This document shows positions 1-6,527 of a stretch of DNA of 11,544 bases, in pieces. The DNA comes from a virus (taxonomy: Monodnaviria > Loebvirae > Hofneiviricota > Faserviricetes > Tubulavirales > Inoviridae). The stretch lies in the IMG/VR virus record IMGVR_UViG_2541047905_000001. One strand, 5' to 3'. The translations under genes and the position numbers were made by a program. How positions within the stretch are numbered: position 1 is the stretch's first letter; each line of letters opens with the position of its first letter. The notes under the pieces are model-generated. The model was not told where the DNA came from. It did no database searches and saw only the letters and a program-made list of their open reading frames with translations.

Positions 1-327
1 TCATTTTTTCCAGAGGCGGTCGAACTCCGCCTTCGCAAAATAAGCGGAAGCCTGGCGAAGGATATCGTTACTGCGGCGCAGTTCACGATTTTCACGTTCC
101 AGCTCTTTCAGACGCTGACGTTCAGCGGTGGTGAGCCCTCCATCACCGCCCCCGGTATCCCGCTCATGCTGGCGAACCCAGACACGCAGAGTCTCCGGCG
201 TACAGCCAATCTTTGGAGCAATGGAACAAATTGTCGCCCATTGTGAGTCATATTCGCCCTGACTTTCCAGAACCATACGGACTGCCCGTTGACGGACTTC
301 AGGGGAAAAACGAGTATTTTTAGTCAT
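1..327 (-). CDS. IS3-family transposase OrfA (IS629/IS1203-like), 108 aa, HTH DNA-binding subunit
   Basis: Translation [61 protein letters not shown]...[36 protein letters not shown] matches my memory of IS629 OrfA. A leucine-zipper-like C-terminus and an A-rich slippery run near the 3-prime end (AAAAAAT near positions 4-10, minus strand) fit a programmed frameshift into orfB. Confidence 0.9.
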
Positions 328-381
328 CCTGTTTACCTCTTTCTCAGGAAGTTTAGTCTCCAGGATTCCCGGGGCGGTTCA
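1..381 (-). mobile_element. Partial IS629-like (IS3 family) insertion sequence: left end only, element continues past the window start
   Basis: Seen: complete orfA at 1-327 (minus). The minus-strand reading of 328-381 begins TGAACCGCCCCGGGAATCCTGGAGACTAAACTTCC, which I recall as the IS629/IS1203 terminal inverted repeat (IS3-family elements start 5-prime TG). orfB would lie beyond position 1. Confidence 0.85.
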
Positions 382-666
382 ATCAGCGATCTCAAACTGG
401 CAATGGGGCTTAACGCATCCAAAGGCAAAAAAACGGCAATCGATAAAATTTATCCGCGACATTTTTTGGCGACAGCAAAGGTGCTGAGATTCCCGGAAGT
501 GCAGATGCATGAAATCCTGAGTGACTTTGCCAGAATGATTCCAGCAGCACTGGATAACGTGAAGACTTCATTACCGACAGATTTTCCGGAGAACGTGGTG
601 ACGGCAGTTGAAAGCAATGTGTTGAGGTTGCATGGACGGTTAAGCCGAGAATACGGTAGTAAGTGA
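382..666 (+). pseudogene. Possible 3-prime fragment of a gene truncated by the IS629 insertion (alternatively a small ORF starting at ATG 403); function unknown
   Basis: The frame is open from the IS boundary (381/382) to the stop at 664-666 and the translation (…KIYPRHFLATAKVLRFPEVQMHEILSDFARMIPAALDNVKTSLPTDFPENVVTAVESNVLRLHGRLSREYGSK) looks protein-like. No convincing RBS precedes the internal ATG at 403. I do not recognise the family. Confidence 0.3.
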
Positions 667-742
667 GATATGGGGTTTGGTCATTGTTAATGAGCATGAC
701 AATCATGACCGCCAACGACTGGATTCTTCCTTGGTTTATATT

Positions 743-775
743 GGTGCGCATAATGTACGACTCGTTATGTTGAAA
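743..775 (+). other. dif-like XerC/XerD recombination site with an expanded central region; candidate prophage (IMEX) junction
   Basis: Seen: GGTGCGCATAA-TGTACGACTCG-TTATGTTGAAA. From memory, E. coli dif is GGTGCGCATAA-TGTATA-TTATGTTAAAT. The XerC arm is identical (11/11), the first four central bases match, the XerD arm matches 9/11, and the central region is 11 bp instead of 6. Confidence 0.55.
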
Positions 776-809
776 AGGCCGCTGCGAAAATCGAATCCCG
801 CAGCGGCCT
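776..809. terminator. Strong GC-rich hairpin (11-bp perfect stem, 12-nt loop) between convergent genes; probable bidirectional terminator
   Basis: Seen: AGGCCGCTGCG (776-786) pairs perfectly with CGCAGCGGCCT (799-809). It lies downstream of the minus-strand gene ending at 843 and downstream of the plus-strand ORF ending at 666. The U-tracts are weak on both strands (CTTTA on plus, TTTCAACA on minus). Confidence 0.5.
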
Positions 810-842
810 CTTTAGCATAACGTCATTGTGCGAACCAATTAT

Positions 843-1109
843 TTAGTCCTGCTGTCGACCAGGGGCATCATAACCTTGTCTTTTTCGCCATGCTTTTTCA
901 CCTCTCTCCCATATAACCGTGTCATTAGTTAGCTTTCTAAATTTCGCTAATACTTTTTTATCAATGGATAAATTTCCATTAGCATTCAAATATACGAAAG
1001 TATCGCCAAATAACTCTTTTATTTTATATACAACAGTTTCTTGATATAGCCAGTTTGTGTTTTCCAGCTCTGATTTCATCCATTGTGCAACATCATCTAC
1101 AGTAGCCAT
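843..1109 (-). CDS. Hypothetical 88-aa protein; downstream partner of the nuclease-like gene in an AT-rich two-gene cassette
   Basis: ORF with an AGGA-containing RBS (AAAAGGACATAT then ATG) 10 bp after the stop of the upstream gene, which indicates co-transcription. Soluble, charged, basic C-terminus (KAWRKRQGYDAPGRQQD). Family not recognised. Confidence 0.6.
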   Translation of the reverse strand: MATVDDVAQWMKSELENTNWLYQETVVYKIKELFGDTFVYLNANGNLSIDKKVLAKFRKLTNDTVIWERGEKAWRKRQGYDAPGRQQD

Positions 1110-1119
1110 ATATGTCCTT

Positions 1120-1914
1120 TTATTTTGGTGAGATTATTACTTTTACCGAAATTGAATTTGTACAACGCTCAAGGTCATTCTCCACACCAATTGGATTGGC
1201 AATTCTACCTTCAGGGTCATATACAAAACACACTAAAGTTTCGCAATCAGGATGCGTTTGATAATGAGCTATATCAACAATTAATTGCTCACCAACTTCT
1301 TTTTGCTTGAGATTTTTTCTCGTTTTCTTTAACTCGATAATGATTTTTTCATTCTTTAACAAGAAGTCAACTCGTGTTGAAGATCCTGCATAGCTTGGCG
1401 TATATTCTTCTGGTCTGACATCCTCGAAATGAATCTTCAAAAGAGCATGAAATAAATCCTGAACGTCATATTCGTCATTTATTTCAATGGTTTGTCTATT
1501 ATCGTGTCGTTGCTGTAGCTGTCTTGCAACCTTATGAAATTGATGGCAAATTAGTTCAACAAGAGCTACGGGATCATTTTTTGTCTCTATGAAATTCCCG
1601 TCAATTCCATATTCTTCAATCTCAGCAATCATAGACGTAAGAAGAGAATGTGCTTCATCTAAACCACTACAAAATGCGTTATCGAAAACATAATCTGGTG
1701 TATCACCAACAAATGCCATTAAAGAGTATCGAATTGAGCCAAATTCTTTTTTGTGATCTGACTCTTCACCAAATATTTTTGATATGGCGGTCTTAGTGTT
1801 TCTTTGCCATAAGTTAAAACTTGGGTTATTTCCTGTACTCCTTCGTTCATTTTGTATTGCTGGGATTTGCTCCCGTTGTCTTTTTAATATCTCGATAGCT
1901 TTTTCTGGCTTCAT
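1120..1914 (-). CDS. Hypothetical 264-aa protein with an alpha-helical N-terminal region and a C-terminal PD-(D/E)xK-type nuclease-like motif; candidate defence or abortive-infection effector
   Basis: Strong RBS (GAGGAAAGATA then ATG at 1914). The translation contains the motif order typical of the restriction-endonuclease-like fold: ...IHFEDVRPEE...STRVDFLLKNEKIIIELKKT... (candidate D183, E194, K196) followed by Q210...Y218. The coding sequence is conspicuously AT-rich compared with the flanking IS and phage DNA. The fold assignment is inferred from the motif, not from a search. Confidence 0.6.
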   Translation of the reverse strand: MKPEKAIEILKRQREQIPAIQNERRSTGNNPSFNLWQRNTKTAISKIFGEESDHKKEFGSIRYSLMAFVGDTPDYVFDNAFCSGLDEAHSLLTSMIAEIEEYGIDGNFIETKNDPVALVELICHQFHKVARQLQQRHDNRQTIEINDEYDVQDLFHALLKIHFEDVRPEEYTPSYAGSSTRVDFLLKNEKIIIELKKTRKNLKQKEVGEQLIVDIAHYQTHPDCETLVCFVYDPEGRIANPIGVENDLERCTNSISVKVIISPK

Positions 1915-1980
1915 TATCTTTCCTCAAGACTAAAAAATAACCACTCTGAACTTCACCGCTGATATATGGAGCAAAATTGC

Positions 1981-2403
1981 TTACCAATAATAAGAGTTTC
2001 TTCTGTGCCACCAATAAAGCAGACCGTATCCGACGATAAGAATACCGAAAAACATTAACGACATTCCCCAGCCAGTTCCGTACCACGAAACCATATCATC
2101 GAAAACCAACCCACCCATTTCACGTACTCCGGCAGCTTCCTTAAGAATTGGTTTGAATACCGGAATCAGAAGGGCGATCGCCAGTGGAGCACCCCAGCGA
2201 ACAAGGCCTGTTTCCATTTTGATCCCGAAAAAGATCCCCGCCCCAACAACAAGCAGCCAGACTATCAGGCCAGGCGCAGTTTCCAGTGCTGTTTGCCATT
2301 CAACATCGAAAGTTTTCATTAGCCAGGCAACAACTGCCAGACAGAAAGCAAATACGCCGACGACAACCAGTTCAACGCCGCTTGTTTCGTTATTTCTACT
2401 CAT
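1981..2403 (-). CDS. Hypothetical multi-pass inner-membrane protein, 140 aa
   Basis: Translation shows several hydrophobic segments (VELVVVGVFAFCLAVVAWL, GLIVWLLVVGAGIFFGI, APLAIALLIPVF, MSLMFFGILIVGYGLLYWW). Same strand as, and upstream of, the nuclease-like gene with a 66-bp gap. RBS AAAAGGA precedes the ATG. Confidence 0.6.
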   Translation of the reverse strand: MSRNNETSGVELVVVGVFAFCLAVVAWLMKTFDVEWQTALETAPGLIVWLLVVGAGIFFGIKMETGLVRWGAPLAIALLIPVFKPILKEAAGVREMGGLVFDDMVSWYGTGWGMSLMFFGILIVGYGLLYWWHRRNSYYW

Positions 2404-2445
2404 CCTTTTGATCCTTTTTTACTGTTCAAAATTCGCACAATAAAG

Positions 2446-2474
2446 AACGTGCAGTGTTGGTAATACTGCACGTT
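2446..2474. repeat. 10-bp perfect inverted repeat with 9-nt loop between the regulator and membrane-protein genes; candidate terminator or operator
   Basis: Seen: AACGTGCAGT (2446-2455), loop GTTGGTAAT, ACTGCACGTT (2465-2474). On the minus strand it is followed by CTTTATTG. Confidence 0.4.
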
Positions 2475-2502
2475 TGTCTCATTCCTGAGACTGTTAATCC
2501 TT

Positions 2503-2949
2503 TTACTCTTCTCCAGACACCGCTTTTTTCATAAACATTTTAGTACTGTAAGTGTATGAACTTAATGCAGAAACCTGCCTTGCGAGTGCCAGAATATCTT
2601 GTTTTTCCAGTGTCCTGATGTTCCACACGATGAAATTATGTGCGTTAGTGGTTTCTTCATCAGTATATCCATCCGCAGAAGTGATTAGCTTCCGCTCGGT
2701 AGCTTCTTCTTTAACATCAAGAGCATAGCCATAAGCTAAGGTGTTTAAGTCTGCACCCGTAATTTTAGCTATCTGAATGATGTCACTGAATTTAGGTTCA
2801 GTTTTGCCGGACGCTATCCTGACCAGCGTACTCACGCTAATGCCAGTCTTCTCGGCCAGTTCTTCATAAGTCGAGTGTTCCAGAATTACCTTTTTGATAC
2901 GTTCTGCTCTCTGTTTGTCCGCCATAACTTCATGCTCATTGTTGCCCAT
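2503..2949 (-). CDS. XRE-family helix-turn-helix transcriptional regulator, 148 aa; probable prophage repressor transcribed divergently from gII
   Basis: HTH signature in the N-terminal third (STYEELAEKTGISVSTLVRIASGKTEPKFSDIIQIAKITGADLNTLAYG). Its position and divergent orientation relative to the replication gene resemble repressors of filamentous prophages such as RstR of CTXphi. GGAG lies 9 nt upstream of the ATG at 2949; an alternative start at Met9 is possible. Confidence 0.75.
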   Translation of the reverse strand: MGNNEHEVMADKQRAERIKKVILEHSTYEELAEKTGISVSTLVRIASGKTEPKFSDIIQIAKITGADLNTLAYGYALDVKEEATERKLITSADGYTDEETTNAHNFIVWNIRTLEKQDILALARQVSALSSYTYSTKMFMKKAVSGEE

Positions 2950-3120
2950 CTACTTGGCTCCATCTTAACAGTGGTTTTTCAATAGTTAGATTTGATGCTC
3001 ATTTCTGACAATTTAAACATTGCAAATGTATTGACTGTCAGATCTGAGCATATTACATTGTGACCATTCAATCTGCTCACAAATGACTATTGACACATAT
3101 TTTGATGGGTGTGACTACTT
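2950..3120. promoter_or_regulatory. Divergent intergenic control region between the repressor and gII; probably holds the promoters, operators and the plus-strand origin
   Basis: 171-bp AT-rich spacer between divergent start codons. It contains TTGACT (3031-3036), several TGAC-containing half-sites, and a motif resembling the Ff gene-II nick site at 2964-2989. Exact -10/-35 assignments are not secure. Confidence 0.4.
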
Positions 3121-3711
3121 ATGATCGACTGGTTTACCGGAATCCTGCCTTGCACACACCGACCGTTACCGGCTGGTAGTGTCGTCAGCGTCGATGCTGA
3201 CGGTGCAGTGGAGTGGGAAACAGTAAAACGGTTGACCGTTCGCGGTTCGCATGAGTCCACAATGAAAGTAAGGTCTGTTGGATCTGATGGTGAAGGTAGG
3301 GCAACACATCTCTACATTGACGGTAATCCATCAAAGTTTTTGCAAGGTCACTCTGTTATCGGTTCCGACGATTTGCAAGGGTTGGTGTTAACAGCTTACG
3401 CCAGAATATTGGCATTACTGCATATTCCTCATGATCTACCATCCTATCGGCAGGTCATGGAAGGGCAATTTAAGATCTCGCGCATCGATATCAATTACAT
3501 GTATTCATTGTCAACATTAGAAAATGTCCGCGCATGGTTATATGCCGCAGAATTTAAAGCTAAAACTCGCCACGGTCGCGCCTGTGGTAAAGGTGGCACT
3601 GTTTACTTAGGGAAAAACTCCCGTCGTTGGAGCCTGAAATTTTATTCAAAATATGATGAGCATACATCTGGCAAAAAAGGGCACCAGATGGCAGTAATGC
3701 CAGTCAGTTAA
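3121..3711 (+). pseudogene. Filamentous-phage replication initiation protein (Ff gII-like), N-terminal fragment, interrupted by IS4 after codon 191
   Basis: Translation starts MID... and contains KFLQGHSVIGSDDL and ISRIDINY, matching the M13 pII segments KVLQGHNVFGTTDL and ISRIDATF as I recall them. Native coding sequence ends at 3694; the last five codons (VMPVS, stop) are read from IS4 sequence. Confidence 0.9.
3682..3694. repeat. Left copy of the 13-bp target-site duplication (CACCAGATGGCAG) made by IS4 insertion
   Basis: Identical 13-mer abuts both ends of the IS at 3682-3694 and 5121-5133. Confidence 0.85.
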
Positions 3712-5120
3712 GCAACTGACTGGCTCTTTTTCGGGGCTGTGGGGTATTTCCAGGGCCTCTCCTTTACCACTCTCGGGAAGGCCCTTTCCCTTCTTGTCGG
3801 TAATTTCACAAGTTGTCCCATACTTGCAAGATCGCGCATCAGCTCCGGTATACGTCCCGGTGAAGCGCCCTGCAATGTCATCAGCATTCTCATCACCATT
3901 CCGCATGATTCTGAGAAACTCAGTTGATTCGGCCAGTAACCTTTCAGATGTTCCGCCATTTTAATCATCTGATATCTCACCAGATTATAAGCCAGTAAGA
4001 CACCCCACAGCTCTTGCTCCACAAGCTCCGGCTTTTTACTTCTCAGCGTCAGCCTGCTCCGTTGCATCGTCTGTTTTATCTCCCTGTATCCCAGTTCGAT
4101 TTCCCAGCGATGACTGTACAGATCCCCCATTTCTCCTCCGGGGAAGCGCATGGCGTCCGTCATCGACGTCAGCAGATGGCAGACTTTTCCTTTGCGCGTC
4201 ACGGTCAGCAGGCGGGCAGTCACTTCATTTCCCAGTCCCGGCCACTTTTTTCGTGCCTGCGGGCTGGTTTTCAGCTTCACCAGATGATCGCCTTTACCCA
4301 GTTTTCTGATCTCTTCATATTGCGCTCCCTTTCTGAGAGGTATCATCCAGTGGCGGTGTTCTCCCGCCAGGCTCCAGGCATTTAACAGTCCCAGTGAGTA
4401 ATAACCTTTATCCATTAACGTCAGAGTGTTATCGCCGGTTTGTTCTATAAGTTGCTCAGCAAGCTCATTTTCGCTGTTCTTCATCGTGCCGAAGGCTGCA
4501 GCCGTCAGCAGATGGCTGGTCAGTTCCATCTGGCAGACCATTTTGACCTGCGGGTAGAGCGCCGGGTTCCCGGCATGTGTCTGGCGGGGGAAGGCTGCAT
4601 CGTTCTCTGGTGTATCCGGTGTGCGCCAGAACACACCATCGATGGCCAGCAGGGTCAGGCCGCACCAGTGCGGATGCGGCGTGGCGTTATGCCAGAGCTG
4701 CGCTGTTTTCGTGAACACGCGGCGGACAGCCTCACTTCCCAGGCGCTGGCGGGCCTGAATAACGGCACTGGGGGCAACGAAGGGGCGATTGCCCGGCAGC
4801 ATGATGTCCAGGCGATTCACAATCTGGTGAAGAGGTTCTTTACGCTCAAGCGCCATGCCAACAATACACCAGACCATCATTTCGAGGGGAAGACGGCGCT
4901 TGCGTAGCGTTACAGTACCTGATTCGGCAAGGCAACGAGAGATGAGTTCGGGGTCGAGGTAATCCCCCAGAGAAGTCAGTGGGTTACGCAGAGAATCGTA
5001 ACGGGATACCAGATCAAGAGCCTGTCCAATGTGCATAAAAAAATCCGGAAACAAGTGAGCGTTTCCGGATTCTTACACAGCCACTGGATCGGTCAACTGA
5101 TCCTTAACTGATCGGCATTA
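3695..5120 (-). mobile_element. Complete IS4 insertion sequence (1426 bp) inserted in gII
   Basis: 18-bp terminal inverted repeats TAATGCCAGTCAGTTAAG (3695-3712) and the reverse complement of 5103-5120 (TAATGCCGATCAGTTAAG), 16/18 identical. Single transposase ORF. The 1426-bp length matches my memory of IS4. Flanked by the 13-bp direct repeat. Confidence 0.95.
3708..5036 (-). CDS. insG: IS4 transposase, 442 aa, DDE family
   Basis: Translation from [70 protein letters not shown]... to ...[13 protein letters not shown] matches my memory of E. coli IS4 InsG. The ORF track begins six codons earlier (MFPDFF); I take Met7 as the true start. Confidence 0.95.
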
Positions 5121-5133
5121 CACCAGATGGCAG
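5121..5133. repeat. Right copy of the 13-bp IS4 target-site duplication
   Basis: CACCAGATGGCAG, identical to 3682-3694. Confidence 0.85.
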
Positions 5134-5297
5134 ACGAATTCGTTAAAGCTGGTTTACTGGACTGGTCAAAAGATAAATTACGCATTGAATTAACATTAAG
5201 AACAACTGAATTAATTGATTTGAATCTTACGCTTGGTAATAGCTGGAATATTGAGACGCCCAATAAATTATTCTCTGACTATGTAGGGAGAATAGAA

Positions 5298-5612
5298 ATG
5301 AATCAAAACACTATATTAACTGATGAAAAAATAATTAATCTCCCAAGAAAAATACAGTCTACATATTTATTGTGGAAGCAGGGCGCGAACATGAAAGAGA
5401 TGTTACCGAAACCTACATTCTACCGACACCGTAAAGAATTACTTTCTTTCGGAATAGATATTAACTTTTATTGTGAGTCACCGGATTCTAATAACGTTGT
5501 TCCGTTGGTTCGTACTCTTGAAGCCAAACCAGCCAAAATTCCATCATGGGTTTATGAGAAAGGTTTAATTTTCGATTATAACCGTATTTCACATGCCAGT
5601 AACTGGCATTAA
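5298..5612 (+). CDS. Possible gX-like protein (in-frame internal restart within the gII C-terminal region), 104 aa
   Basis: In-frame ATG at 5298 preceded by a strong Shine-Dalgarno sequence (GGGAGAA at 5286-5292). In Ff phages pX is the C-terminal roughly 111 aa of pII made from an internal start. Inferred by analogy. Confidence 0.4.
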   Translation: MNQNTILTDEKIINLPRKIQSTYLLWKQGANMKEMLPKPTFYRHRKELLSFGIDINFYCESPDSNNVVPLVRTLEAKPAKIPSWVYEKGLIFDYNRISHASNWH

Positions 5613-5623
5613 AGGAGAGTGAT

Positions 5624-5941
5624 ATGTCTAATTATGGTCTTTTTGTAAAAGGTAAAATGCTTGGTGCTCGCCAGCGTAATAAGGTCAATGGTCAGGGATA
5701 CTATAATGAAATTGGTGTTGGCTTAGAGATTCCTGATGGTTTTGGCGGCACTAAGCAAGACCAGATTATTATTCGTGTATCTCAGGCTCTTGTTAATGCC
5801 GGTGTAATGAATCAGGCAAATAATTTTATCGGTAAGTTAGTCCAGATACCTGTATATGTTCGCGTCTGGTCAATGGAGGGGAGGGAAGGAGTAACTTATA
5901 ACATTTCATCAGATGGCGGCATTACTGAAATAAAAGGCTGA
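5624..5941 (+). CDS. Probable ssDNA-binding protein (gV-like), 105 aa
   Basis: Small soluble ORF immediately after gII with an AGGAG RBS, at the position gV occupies in Ff-type genomes. Assigned by synteny and size, not by recognisable sequence similarity. Confidence 0.5.
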   Translation: MSNYGLFVKGKMLGARQRNKVNGQGYYNEIGVGLEIPDGFGGTKQDQIIIRVSQALVNAGVMNQANNFIGKLVQIPVYVRVWSMEGREGVTYNISSDGGITEIKG

Positions 5942-5943
5942 TT

Positions 5944-6195
5944 ATGGATACATCAGGTTTCGATATTCAGTTTGATAATCATATTCCTGAAAATGGTTAC
6001 CGTATTGAAGGTTATTTATGTAATGCGAACAATGCAAAAGAATGTCAGGCAATAATGGTACGTTCTGAACCATTTCATCAAATTGATTATTCTGCAATGG
6101 GAAATTACTGGACATTAGGTTTTGGCTCTGTCCTGCTGCTCTGGCTTTTTTCTGTAGGTGTGGGACAGGTAATAAAGATGGTTCGTACTGCTTGA
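5944..6195 (+). CDS. Small protein with a C-terminal transmembrane helix, 83 aa; possible minor virion protein at the gVII/gIX position
   Basis: Start overlaps the gV stop (TGATTATG). C-terminal hydrophobic segment YWTLGFGSVLLLWLFSVGVGQVI followed by KMVRTA. Assigned by position only. Confidence 0.45.
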   Translation: MDTSGFDIQFDNHIPENGYRIEGYLCNANNAKECQAIMVRSEPFHQIDYSAMGNYWTLGFGSVLLLWLFSVGVGQVIKMVRTA

Positions 6196-6229
6196 ATGCG
6201 AACCTTTAAAATGTAATGGAGATAGAGTT

Positions 6230-6463
6230 ATGTTTAAAAAAATCGTTAGTTTTCTGGCTGTACCTGCATTAATGGCTGTTTCTGGCGCGACTTTCGCTGC
6301 AGAAGGAGCGGCATCAAGTGGTGTTGATTTATCGCCGCTGACGAACAGCATTGATTTCAGTACAGTTCTGGTTGCGATTATGGCCGTTGCTGCTTCACTG
6401 GTAACACTTTATGCCGGTGTCGCTGGCGTTCGCTGGGTATTGCGTACCGTTAAATCCGCATAA
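6230..6463 (+). CDS. Major coat protein precursor (gVIII-like), 77 aa
   Basis: Classic architecture: signal peptide MFKKIVSFLAVPALMAVSGATFA, acidic mature N-terminus AEGAASSGVD, a hydrophobic helix, and a basic C-terminus RWVLRTVKSA. GGAG RBS 8 nt upstream. Confidence 0.8.
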   Translation: MFKKIVSFLAVPALMAVSGATFAAEGAASSGVDLSPLTNSIDFSTVLVAIMAVAASLVTLYAGVAGVRWVLRTVKSA

Positions 6464-6476
6464 ATTCATTATTCAT

Positions 6477-6500
6477 GGGCGATGCAATATCGCCCGTTTT
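6477..6500 (+). terminator. Rho-independent terminator after the major coat gene
   Basis: Hairpin GGGCGAT (6477-6483), loop GCAAT, ATCGCCC (6489-6495), followed by GTTTT. Ff phages have a strong terminator just after gVIII. Confidence 0.6.
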
Positions 6501-6527
6501 ACTTGAGGTTATTATGGAGATTGAATT

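Follow-up and report, generated by a model that had tools for sequence, protein, structure and literature searches.

In marine Vibrio, filamentous prophages carry a defined hot spot of accessory genes that is enriched in defence genes (PMC11630473). CUS-1 has unrelated open reading frames (ORFs) in place of the two that lie adjacent to attL in the phage YpfPhi, next to an RstR-like repressor; these attL-adjacent ORFs were described as having 'no predicted function' (PMC4266046). According to the same review, phages of this group depend on XerC to integrate at dif, and members of the prophage family are reported in Yersinia pestis (PMC4266046). Pf phages carry toxin-antitoxin (TA) and kinase-phosphatase defence modules (PMC12328805, PMC11341870). 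Here we analyse four minus-strand ORFs at 843-2949 of an 11,544-nucleotide (nt) stretch of inovirus DNA (IMG/VR record IMGVR_UViG_2541047905_000001, the whole of which we call the window), which lie between the left junction of an Escherichia coli filamentous prophage and its gII gene and which the first-pass annotation had taken for one accessory block. We find that the block has two layers, a conserved backbone and a replaceable cargo, and we consider it fairly probable that the nuclease encoded in the cargo is a lysogeny-expressed effector of abortive infection, directed against phages or mobile genetic elements. Fixed positions between conserved genes that hold interchangeable anti-phage systems have reportedly been described for P2 prophages and P4 satellites by Rousset et al. 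in 2022; the slot described here differs from those hot spots in belonging to a filamentous phage, in relying on host XerCD at dif, and in being smaller (0-1.3 kb).

The closest parallel is the Vibrio hot spot, in that both are found in small dif-integrating filamentous prophages and consist of one variable locus between conserved genes. The Vibrio account, which also covers tailless prophages, is of a locus whose content differs among close relatives, where defence and TA genes are enriched and many genes are unannotated. The slot in the window differs in its Enterobacterales host, in its CUS-1/Ypf-like lineage, in its cargos, and in having boundaries defined at the nucleotide level. YpfPhi and CUS-1 belong to the same phage group and vary at the same prophage end; compared with that account, the variable part is here separated from a conserved membrane gene, and about ten cargos are catalogued, several of them with defence-type domains. 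What is new is the cargo catalogue, the precise placing of the slot's ends in a phage family of E. coli, and the link of this nuclease family to the PDC-S35/TIR candidates through a common N-terminal domain.

Backbone and cargo

The chromosome of the uropathogenic E. coli strain VR50 is 100% identical to the window over 1-3694 and 99.96% identical over 5121-10694. Within the first of these stretches, RefSeq annotates the same four coding sequences in VR50 (100% identical over 700-3120), in agreement with the ORF positions given in the first-pass annotation. In VR50, IAL7250 and UTI89 the filamentous prophage lies directly downstream of hipA, the neighbour of the E. coli dif site; this placement, and the dif-like site at 743, are as expected of integration at the dif locus. 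Beyond the block, the prophage genes are gII, gV, small coat genes, a 570-amino-acid (aa) gIII-like gene, a DUF2523 gene, zot and a secretin gene. The parts of the block are as follows.

740-839, no strand: left end of the backbone, with a dif-like hybrid site (743-775), a GC-rich stem (776-809) and an inverted second dif-like arm (812-839)
840-1980, minus strand: cargo segment of 1141 bp, confined to this variant of the prophage; leader (66 nt), nuclease gene, spacer (10 nt, with the ribosome-binding site AAGGA), DUF6953 gene
843-1109, minus strand: DUF6953 protein, 88 aa, winged-helix fold (PF22266, E 1.8e-28)
1120-1914, minus strand: nuclease, 264 aa (REase_DpnII-MboI, PF18742, E 6.9e-59, residues 118-264)
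1981-2403, minus strand: membrane protein, 140 aa, backbone gene (phrog_4174, E 1.6e-85; four hydrophobic segments)
2503-2949, minus strand: Cro/CI-type helix-turn-helix (HTH) regulator, 148 aa, backbone gene (HTH_3, E 1.6e-09; phrog_3557 'transcriptional regulator')

Searching IMG/VR with the membrane protein retrieved 22 full-length related prophage loci, and all 22 keep both the membrane gene (88-100% identity) and the HTH regulator. The attP hairpin is retained in the related prophages in the same identity range (88-100%, as for the regulator), and the attP-region sequence is present in every related locus that reaches that far, whatever the cargo. Between these parts, junction alignment shows that homology to the relatives breaks exactly at 1980/1981 and 839/840. 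The breakpoint at 1980/1981 falls directly past the TAA stop codon of the membrane gene; on the attP side the breakpoint sequence is ATTGGTTCGCAC..., and homology resumes at ATTGGTTCGCACAATGACG..., i.e. from window position 839 leftwards, with the whole attP hairpin included. In the empty variant (L043) just 7 nt stand between the same two flanks. The slot is one defined locus of variable content with conserved flanks, and the content downstream of the membrane gene takes at least ten states among the 22 loci, one of them empty. These states are listed here, with counts where available from 5426 complete E. coli genomes.

State A: 309-aa protein, in 18 genomes
State B (this window): nuclease and DUF6953, the whole block being present in 23 genomes
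State C: 91-aa zinc-ribbon protein and 159-aa transmembrane (TM) protein, in 28 genomes
State D: 155-aa and 123-aa proteins
State E: 110-aa protein
State F: 98-aa protein and 262-aa TM protein
State G: 369-374-aa TM protein, in 10 genomes
State H: 368-aa protein, in 1 genome
State I: empty
State J: 101-aa protein and 240-aa TM protein

The membrane gene itself was found in 128 of these genomes, often in tandem copies. The regulator protein WP_000527682.1 is identical in VR50, IAL7250 and UTI89, each of which has a different cargo; the slot of UTI89, presumably a strain of the CUS-1 (O18:K1:H7) lineage, holds a 369-aa TM protein and not the nuclease cassette. It follows from the comparison that the four genes do not form one accessory unit, the regulator and membrane gene being core and the nuclease and DUF6953 variable cargo. 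The suggestion that the cassette was acquired later is borne out by the same comparison, since relatives carry other cassettes, or nothing, between the membrane-gene stop codon and the hairpin. Homologous recombination in the conserved sequences on either side is the probable means by which slot content is exchanged. Composition had been offered as the sign of this later insertion, and the contrast is real: the cassette has 35.3% GC (26-27% at third codon positions), compared with 42.3% in the regulator, 47.5% in the membrane gene and 42.2% in the phage core. However, it is not unique to the cassette, as the 3' part of gII (34.6%) and an 83-aa gene (37.3%) are similarly AT-rich, and we take the split between backbone and cargo to be settled by the comparative evidence and not by composition.

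Defence-type families are represented in three of the approximately ten cargo types. Besides the REase/AgaN-like nuclease of the window, these are cargo A, which consists of AbiJ_NTD4 and DUF7014, matches the PADLOC family PDC-S32 and has the NCBI name STM4504/CBY_0614, and cargo H, a CAP12/Pycsar-type TIR protein that matches PADLOC PDC-S35. A zinc-ribbon cargo protein also matches PDC-S64, weakly.

Among the remaining cargos, two recurrent forms can be recognised. The 159-aa protein of cargo C (L032:6727-7206), the 155-aa protein of cargo D (L038:6535-7002) and the 369-374-aa protein of cargo G (L039:6029-7153) have in common an N-terminal TM helix and the motif N-[KR]-G-x-x-x-A/E-K-N-[IV]-x-I-x-[FI]-P; none of the three has a Pfam match, and the shared features point to one uncharacterised membrane-anchored family that recurs in the slot. 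Cargos F and J (L035:6561-7647 and L045:6444-7489) each encode first a protein of about 100 aa and then one of 240-262 aa, the larger with a soluble N-terminal half and three to four C-terminal TM segments. These pairs gave no family match, and they may represent a sensor with its membrane effector.

The nuclease and its N-terminal module

The 264-aa nuclease is composed of two domains.

1594-1914, minus strand: N-terminal helical domain, residues 1 to about 107, with a match to PDC-S35; all-helical in the structure model
1120-1563, minus strand: C-terminal PD-(D/E)XK restriction endonuclease (REase) domain, residues 118-264, with D183, E194 and K196

The C-terminal domain matches PF18742 over profile positions 2-150 of 150, at 198.1 bits against a cut-off of 27. 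Its motif reads RVD183FLL...IE194LK196K, and by our own reading of this motif D183, E194 and K196 would constitute the catalytic triad. We compared 26 homologues from several phyla, including proteins of Riemerella and Paenibacillus, which are 52-85% identical to it (most of them 52-66%); D183 and K196 are invariant, E194 is conserved in at least 90%, and 53 columns in all are invariant. This bears on the idea that the cassette does nothing at present and is carried along neutrally or is decaying, which could be argued from its rarity (23/5426 genomes), from the truncated remnants in other genera, and from the IS4-family element whose insertion into gII cripples the prophage in this window. 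We find this improbable, given that both ORFs are intact and 99.3-100% identical across the 23 genomes, that the catalytic residues and the 53 invariant columns persist across phyla at ~52-66% identity, and that DUF6953 is conserved as well, with 15 invariant columns.

Two profiles of the PADLOC library each match one part of the protein. Aga_Helical-REase aligns to the nuclease part only (E 1.3e-34, profile positions 216-375 of 378), and PDC-S35 to residues 1-107 only (E 3.6e-11, profile positions 1-103 of 264). In a sequence search of the PDB the sole match to the nuclease was EcbAgaN, a marginal one, and a Foldseek comparison of the full structure model (mean confidence score, pLDDT, 82.8) with the PDB returned weak and mixed matches (E of 0.05 or more) that are uninformative. 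AgaN, from the long-B Argonaute system BPAN, is an autoinhibited nonspecific DNase that brings about abortive infection once activated (PMC10620215, PMC13535254). The window protein is like AgaN (PDB 23wq) in its homologous C-terminal PD-(D/E)XK domain and in having a helical N-domain before the nuclease. It is unlike the BPAN system in that neither the window nor the VR50 annotation contains an Argonaute ORF, and the N-terminal, Ago-binding domain of AgaN is absent from it, the alignment beginning only at profile position 216 of 378. Because there is no Argonaute and the N-terminal domain is a different one, the activator of this nuclease must differ from that of AgaN.

The name of its best Pfam match, REase_DpnII-MboI, might lead one to regard the protein as the DpnII/MboI-like endonuclease of a restriction-modification system, or as an orphan restriction enzyme. 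There is no methyltransferase gene in the block or in the whole prophage, the sole methyltransferase-like match being DUF6953 at 13 bits (E 0.0098), and because of this the locus is not a restriction-modification system. Given also that the sensor-like N-terminal domain is common to TIR proteins and that the closest relatives in the defence library are Argonaute-associated nonspecific nucleases, we see very little room for a restriction enzyme of either kind.

The N-terminal domain is a module that is found with different effectors. An exhaustive search with residues 1-109 gave 456 relatives of this domain, and the Pfam scan of the set covered 88 proteins, namely 87 homologues of at least 180 aa and the query. 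In these, the effector domain was the CAP12/Pycsar TIR in 41 of 88 and REase in 17 of 88; TIR_2 (4/88), TIR (PF01582; 2/88) and Hypoth_Ymh (1/88) made up the other domains found. The predicted candidate PDC-S35 shares its N-terminal domain with the window protein, TIR-bearing proteins being the largest group in the scan; it is unlike the window protein in its C-terminal effector, a TIR in place of the REase, and the full-length PDC-S35 architecture is not that of the window protein. One N-terminal module combined with interchangeable toxic effector domains is a pattern typical of immune sensors and regulators, and PF18742 is known as an alternative effector domain in Detocs variants (10.1101/2023.01.24.525353). 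The nuclease family is abundant, with 3617 homologues in a word-index protein search, and its members also occur in other prophages and in P4-like satellites, beside the primase gene (41% identity in the case of the satellite locus L017).

A Pectobacterium nuclease (L058:5196-5984) has a REase domain 79% identical to that encoded within window 1120-1914, preceded by 116 unrelated N-terminal residues that give no PDC-S35 match; nucleotide homology between the two starts near window position 1527. The two proteins differ by a natural domain swap at the linker.

Proposed function of the cassette

Taken together, the four genes are best explained as the lysogeny side of a filamentous prophage of the CUS-1/Ypf-like kind integrated at dif, with a backbone that runs from a Cro/CI-type repressor through terminator-like hairpins and a conserved four-TM protein to a folded attP/dif-like hairpin. 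The nuclease in the slot would most likely be a self-contained effector acting in abortive infection or against mobile elements: its N-terminal helical module, which in other proteins is joined mainly to TIR domains of the NADase type, would hold the nuclease off until a trigger appears, and the C-terminal PD-(D/E)XK DNase, once released, would degrade DNA. DUF6953, a putative nucleic-acid-binding protein made from the same mRNA, would serve as an optional accessory, either a regulator or a modulator, and not as an obligatory partner. In the lysogen the cassette would be expressed by read-through from the repressor/membrane-gene transcript, which would terminate at the attP hairpin; there is no hairpin after the membrane gene, and a strong stem with a U-tract follows DUF6953.

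Several points weigh against this proposal. The nuclease has no full-length match to any named defence system, and this nuclease family, PDC-S35 and DUF6953 are all only candidates for a defence role, the PADLOC 'PDC' families being predicted ones. Searching the literature by name, we found nothing for DUF6953, PDC-S35 or REase_DpnII-MboI. Most of the alternative cargos show neither a defence-family match nor recognisable domains, and the term 'defence hot spot' therefore describes three of about ten types. A nonspecific DNase would also endanger the replicative form of the phage itself. A promoter scan gave nothing convincing ahead of either the membrane gene or the cassette, and expression is an assumption here. 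Finally, fold searches with DUF6953 returned only generic winged-helix domains.

A more specific and more tentative possibility is that the 264-aa protein is the first REase-armed member of an uncharacterised family of single-protein immune sensors that share the N-terminal helical trigger and carry TIR, REase or HEPN-like effectors, and that in Enterobacterales it works with a dedicated winged-helix co-factor, DUF6953; the slot (0-1.3 kb) of the CUS-1/Ypf-like E. coli prophages could in addition be an untapped source of several wholly new anti-phage genes, with the gene pairs of cargos F and J and the TM proteins of C, D and G as candidates.

The map, exact to the nucleotide, separates the phage's own lysogeny-side genes from the exchangeable ones in filamentous prophages of pathogenic E. 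coli. It makes defence candidates that can be tested out of 'ORFs of unknown function next to attL', and the common N-module ties a nuclease family that is abundant (>3600 homologues) but uncharacterised to the PDC-S35/TIR candidates. If the cargos do protect against other phages, small prophages would add to strain-level phage resistance in clinical E. coli, with relevance to phage therapy, and the slot would be a compact place to seek new immune genes.

DUF6953 and its link to the nuclease

DUF6953 matches PF22266 at 98.9 bits against a cut-off of 27 and ends in a basic C-terminal WRKR...PGRQQ tail; a PDB sequence search with it returned nothing. The main rival to the proposal above is that the nuclease is a toxin and DUF6953 its DNA-binding antitoxin and autoregulator, the two together keeping the prophage stable as an addiction pair. 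Only 10 nt separate the adjacent genes, whose translation is probably coupled. The pair recurs only in Pectobacterium brasiliense, in the same order and with a 17-nt spacer, despite a nuclease in which the C-domain is 79% identical and the N-domain has been replaced. In Morganella and at one Pectobacterium locus a nuclease remnant stands by an intact DUF6953, as would be expected of decay in a toxin/antitoxin pair, and inoviruses do carry TA modules (PMC12328805, PMC11630473). However, neither family needs the other to be present. The word-index search that found 3617 nuclease-family homologues found 91 of DUF6953; 18 other viral loci with a nuclease homologue have no DUF6953 nearby; and DUF6953 stands alone, in unrelated neighbourhoods, at 5 genome loci and >30 metagenome loci outside Enterobacterales, i.e. 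at more than 35 loci without the nuclease. Moreover, an intact nuclease (85% identical) is found in Pectobacterium polaris, where DUF6953 is missing. An addiction pair is for these reasons unlikely in our view, and an obligatory partnership of nuclease and DUF6953 was rejected altogether, as the viral, genome and metagenome scans confine the pair to a few Enterobacterales.

We also considered DUF6953 as a Xer/dif-associated factor resembling XafT and dropped the idea, since only one weak dif-like case was found near 25 orphan DUF6953 genes, in a scan whose power was limited by its use of the E. coli dif consensus, and since cargo variants without DUF6953 have the same attP. The one case (L049:5618-5645, in a gammaproteobacterial metagenome-assembled genome) is a dif-like 28-mer, located about 350 nt downstream of the orphan gene, that differs from E. 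coli dif at 4 positions.

In Pectobacterium the cassette is found without the membrane gene. The true dif site is 520 nt away and the attP-like hairpin is still there, and because of these two features the cassette is the relic of a similar dif-integrating element.

The membrane protein

The 140-aa protein had no Pfam match, and hydropathy predicts four TM segments in it. Its homologues (49 matches) come from Enterobacterales only. According to the first-pass annotation, this protein may act with the nuclease, as its sensor or effector, so that the four genes, or the membrane protein and the cassette, would be one system. The genes are indeed co-oriented and tightly spaced, and no terminator-like hairpin separates the membrane gene from the nuclease gene. 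Nevertheless, the same membrane gene stands beside at least eight unrelated cargos and beside the empty slot, it recurs in Yersinia enterocolitica, where the divergent arm of another, Ff-like filamentous prophage contains it, it survives by itself as a relic in Mixta and Lonsdalea, and the Pectobacterium cassette does without it. A single system of this kind is accordingly most improbable: because the gene occurs with every cargo and with none, the comparative data indicate that the membrane protein is not the partner of the nuclease. The other role suggested for it, a separate immunity or exclusion function, is plausible. Most simply, it would be a superinfection-exclusion or phage-maintenance factor, as we infer from its nature as a small, repressor-adjacent and lysogeny-expressed inner-membrane protein.

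In the Yersinia enterocolitica locus (L101:4388-6676) the membrane gene is 74% identical, and the prophage is Ff/If1-like, with another replication and coat module. Two small ORFs there replace the 148-aa regulator ahead of the membrane gene, and ORFs of 54, 105 and 257 aa follow it. The membrane gene and the slot downstream may thus travel between filamentous phage lineages as a module. In Mixta (L103:5001-5411) and Lonsdalea (L105:5001-5423) the membrane gene is found alone, without phage genes, and its chromosomal surroundings (DUF3811, glutaminase) are in part like those of the Pectobacterium locus that contains dif; it would seem to be what remained when the prophage was lost.

The left junction

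The hairpin at 776-809, which had been put forward as a boundary of the operon, is real, but it appears to be primarily a folded structure of the attP type and not just an operon boundary. It is the tip of a longer, imperfect inverted repeat with arms at 763-786 and 799-822 that are 88% complementary. As single-stranded DNA, 740-839 folds at -31.2 kcal/mol (z -8.1), and 0 of 200 shuffles fold as well. The dif-like site begins GGTGCGCATAATGTA... at 743; in the stem, GGTGCGCATAATG... (from 743, in the dif-like site) pairs with ...CATTGTGCGAACC (to 837), with a bulge between. In phages of the CTX type, two inverted dif-like sites in the phage single strand form the substrate of XerCD. In silico, the window likewise presents two inverted dif-like sites that fold in single-stranded DNA, and we regard 740-839 as a candidate for the folded, CTX-type attP of a dif-integrating phage. 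Read as minus-strand RNA, the same stem has a z score of -7.3 and is followed by UUUU, which suggests that it can also terminate the leftward transcript.

The two dif-like arms at 740-839 differ in their central spacer, which is 11 nt long in one and about 5 nt in the other; this difference would make the bulge.

The regulator, the intergenic hairpins and the gII control region

The regulator matches Phage_CI_repr (E 4.4e-04) in addition to HTH_3, and scores 19.7 bits with the RstR NCBIfam model NF041951, below its cut-off of 80. It is a generic Cro/CI HTH_3 protein in the position of RstR, and the probable repressor of the prophage, divergent from gII. Three features surround it.

2446-2474, minus strand: inverted repeat (perfect stem of 10 bp, loop of 9 nt), with UCUUUAUU after it on the minus strand
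2476-2491, minus strand: second, small hairpin GTCTCA-N4-TGAGAC, just past the regulator stop codon, preceding 2446-2474 on the transcript
2950-3120, no strand: divergent control region of the regulator and gII, with a 27-nt imperfect palindrome (2995-3051) and two plus-strand promoter-like sites

The repeat at 2446-2474 was proposed earlier as a terminator or an operator. Its perfect 10-bp core, AACGTGCAGT/ACTGCACGTT, is present as described, within 13-nt arms that are 92% complementary, and the RNA of the regulator-membrane gene intergenic region folds with a z score of -4.8 (0/200 shuffles as stable). The large stem shows no change in relatives, including those in which the regulator has a different 3' end; in L045 the repeat is followed by TTTTT, and in a more distant group (L042-L044) other hairpins take its place. 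The small stem reads GTACCA...TGGTAC in L024 and L035, where both sides have changed and the pairing is kept. What is kept between the regulator and the membrane gene is structure and not sequence. Because of this, and because no similar half-sites are found in the gII control region, we read the conserved 2446-2474 repeat as a candidate intrinsic terminator or attenuator.

The alternative, that the repeat is an operator of the regulator, was rejected, as there are no similar half-sites in the gII control region; it is further weakened by the retention of the repeat despite differing regulator 3' ends and by the other hairpins that substitute for it elsewhere. A likely operator of the repressor is the palindrome at 2995-3051 (ATGCTCATTTCTGACA...TGTCAGATCTGAGCAT), which overlaps the promoter-like site at 3031-3059.

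Differences in the 3' end of the regulator were seen in the related prophages L024, L034, L035 and L042-L045, and in L042-L044 the regulator-to-membrane intergenic region differs too. By analogy with the RstR types of CTXphi, this variation suggests several immunity alleles.

Other features of the window

No Rfam families or tRNAs were found in the window, and the cultured-phage collection contained no match to the DNA, the nuclease or the membrane protein. To the left of the prophage (window 1-700), an element of the IS3 family of insertion sequences (IS), with orfA at 1-327, truncates hipA; only a 3' fragment is left of this gene, the ORF at 289-666, which is annotated in VR50 as partial HipA and adjoins the dif-like junction on its left side. 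The gII gene carries a 1426-bp IS4-family element at 3695-5120, with its transposase at 3708-5054 (Nterm_IS4 and DDE_Tnp_1), flanked by a 13-bp target duplication, CACCAGATGGCAG (3682-3694 and 5121-5133). The insertion breaks the Phage_CRI domain of G2P at profile positions 191/192, and because it splits gII, the prophage copy in this window is probably replication-defective; VR50 is without this insertion. VR50 contains a tandem array (L001:14540-16115) in which the first copy consists of the four-gene arm and a truncated gIII-like gene, and the second copy, joined directly to it, begins at the regulator and is without the membrane gene and the cargo.

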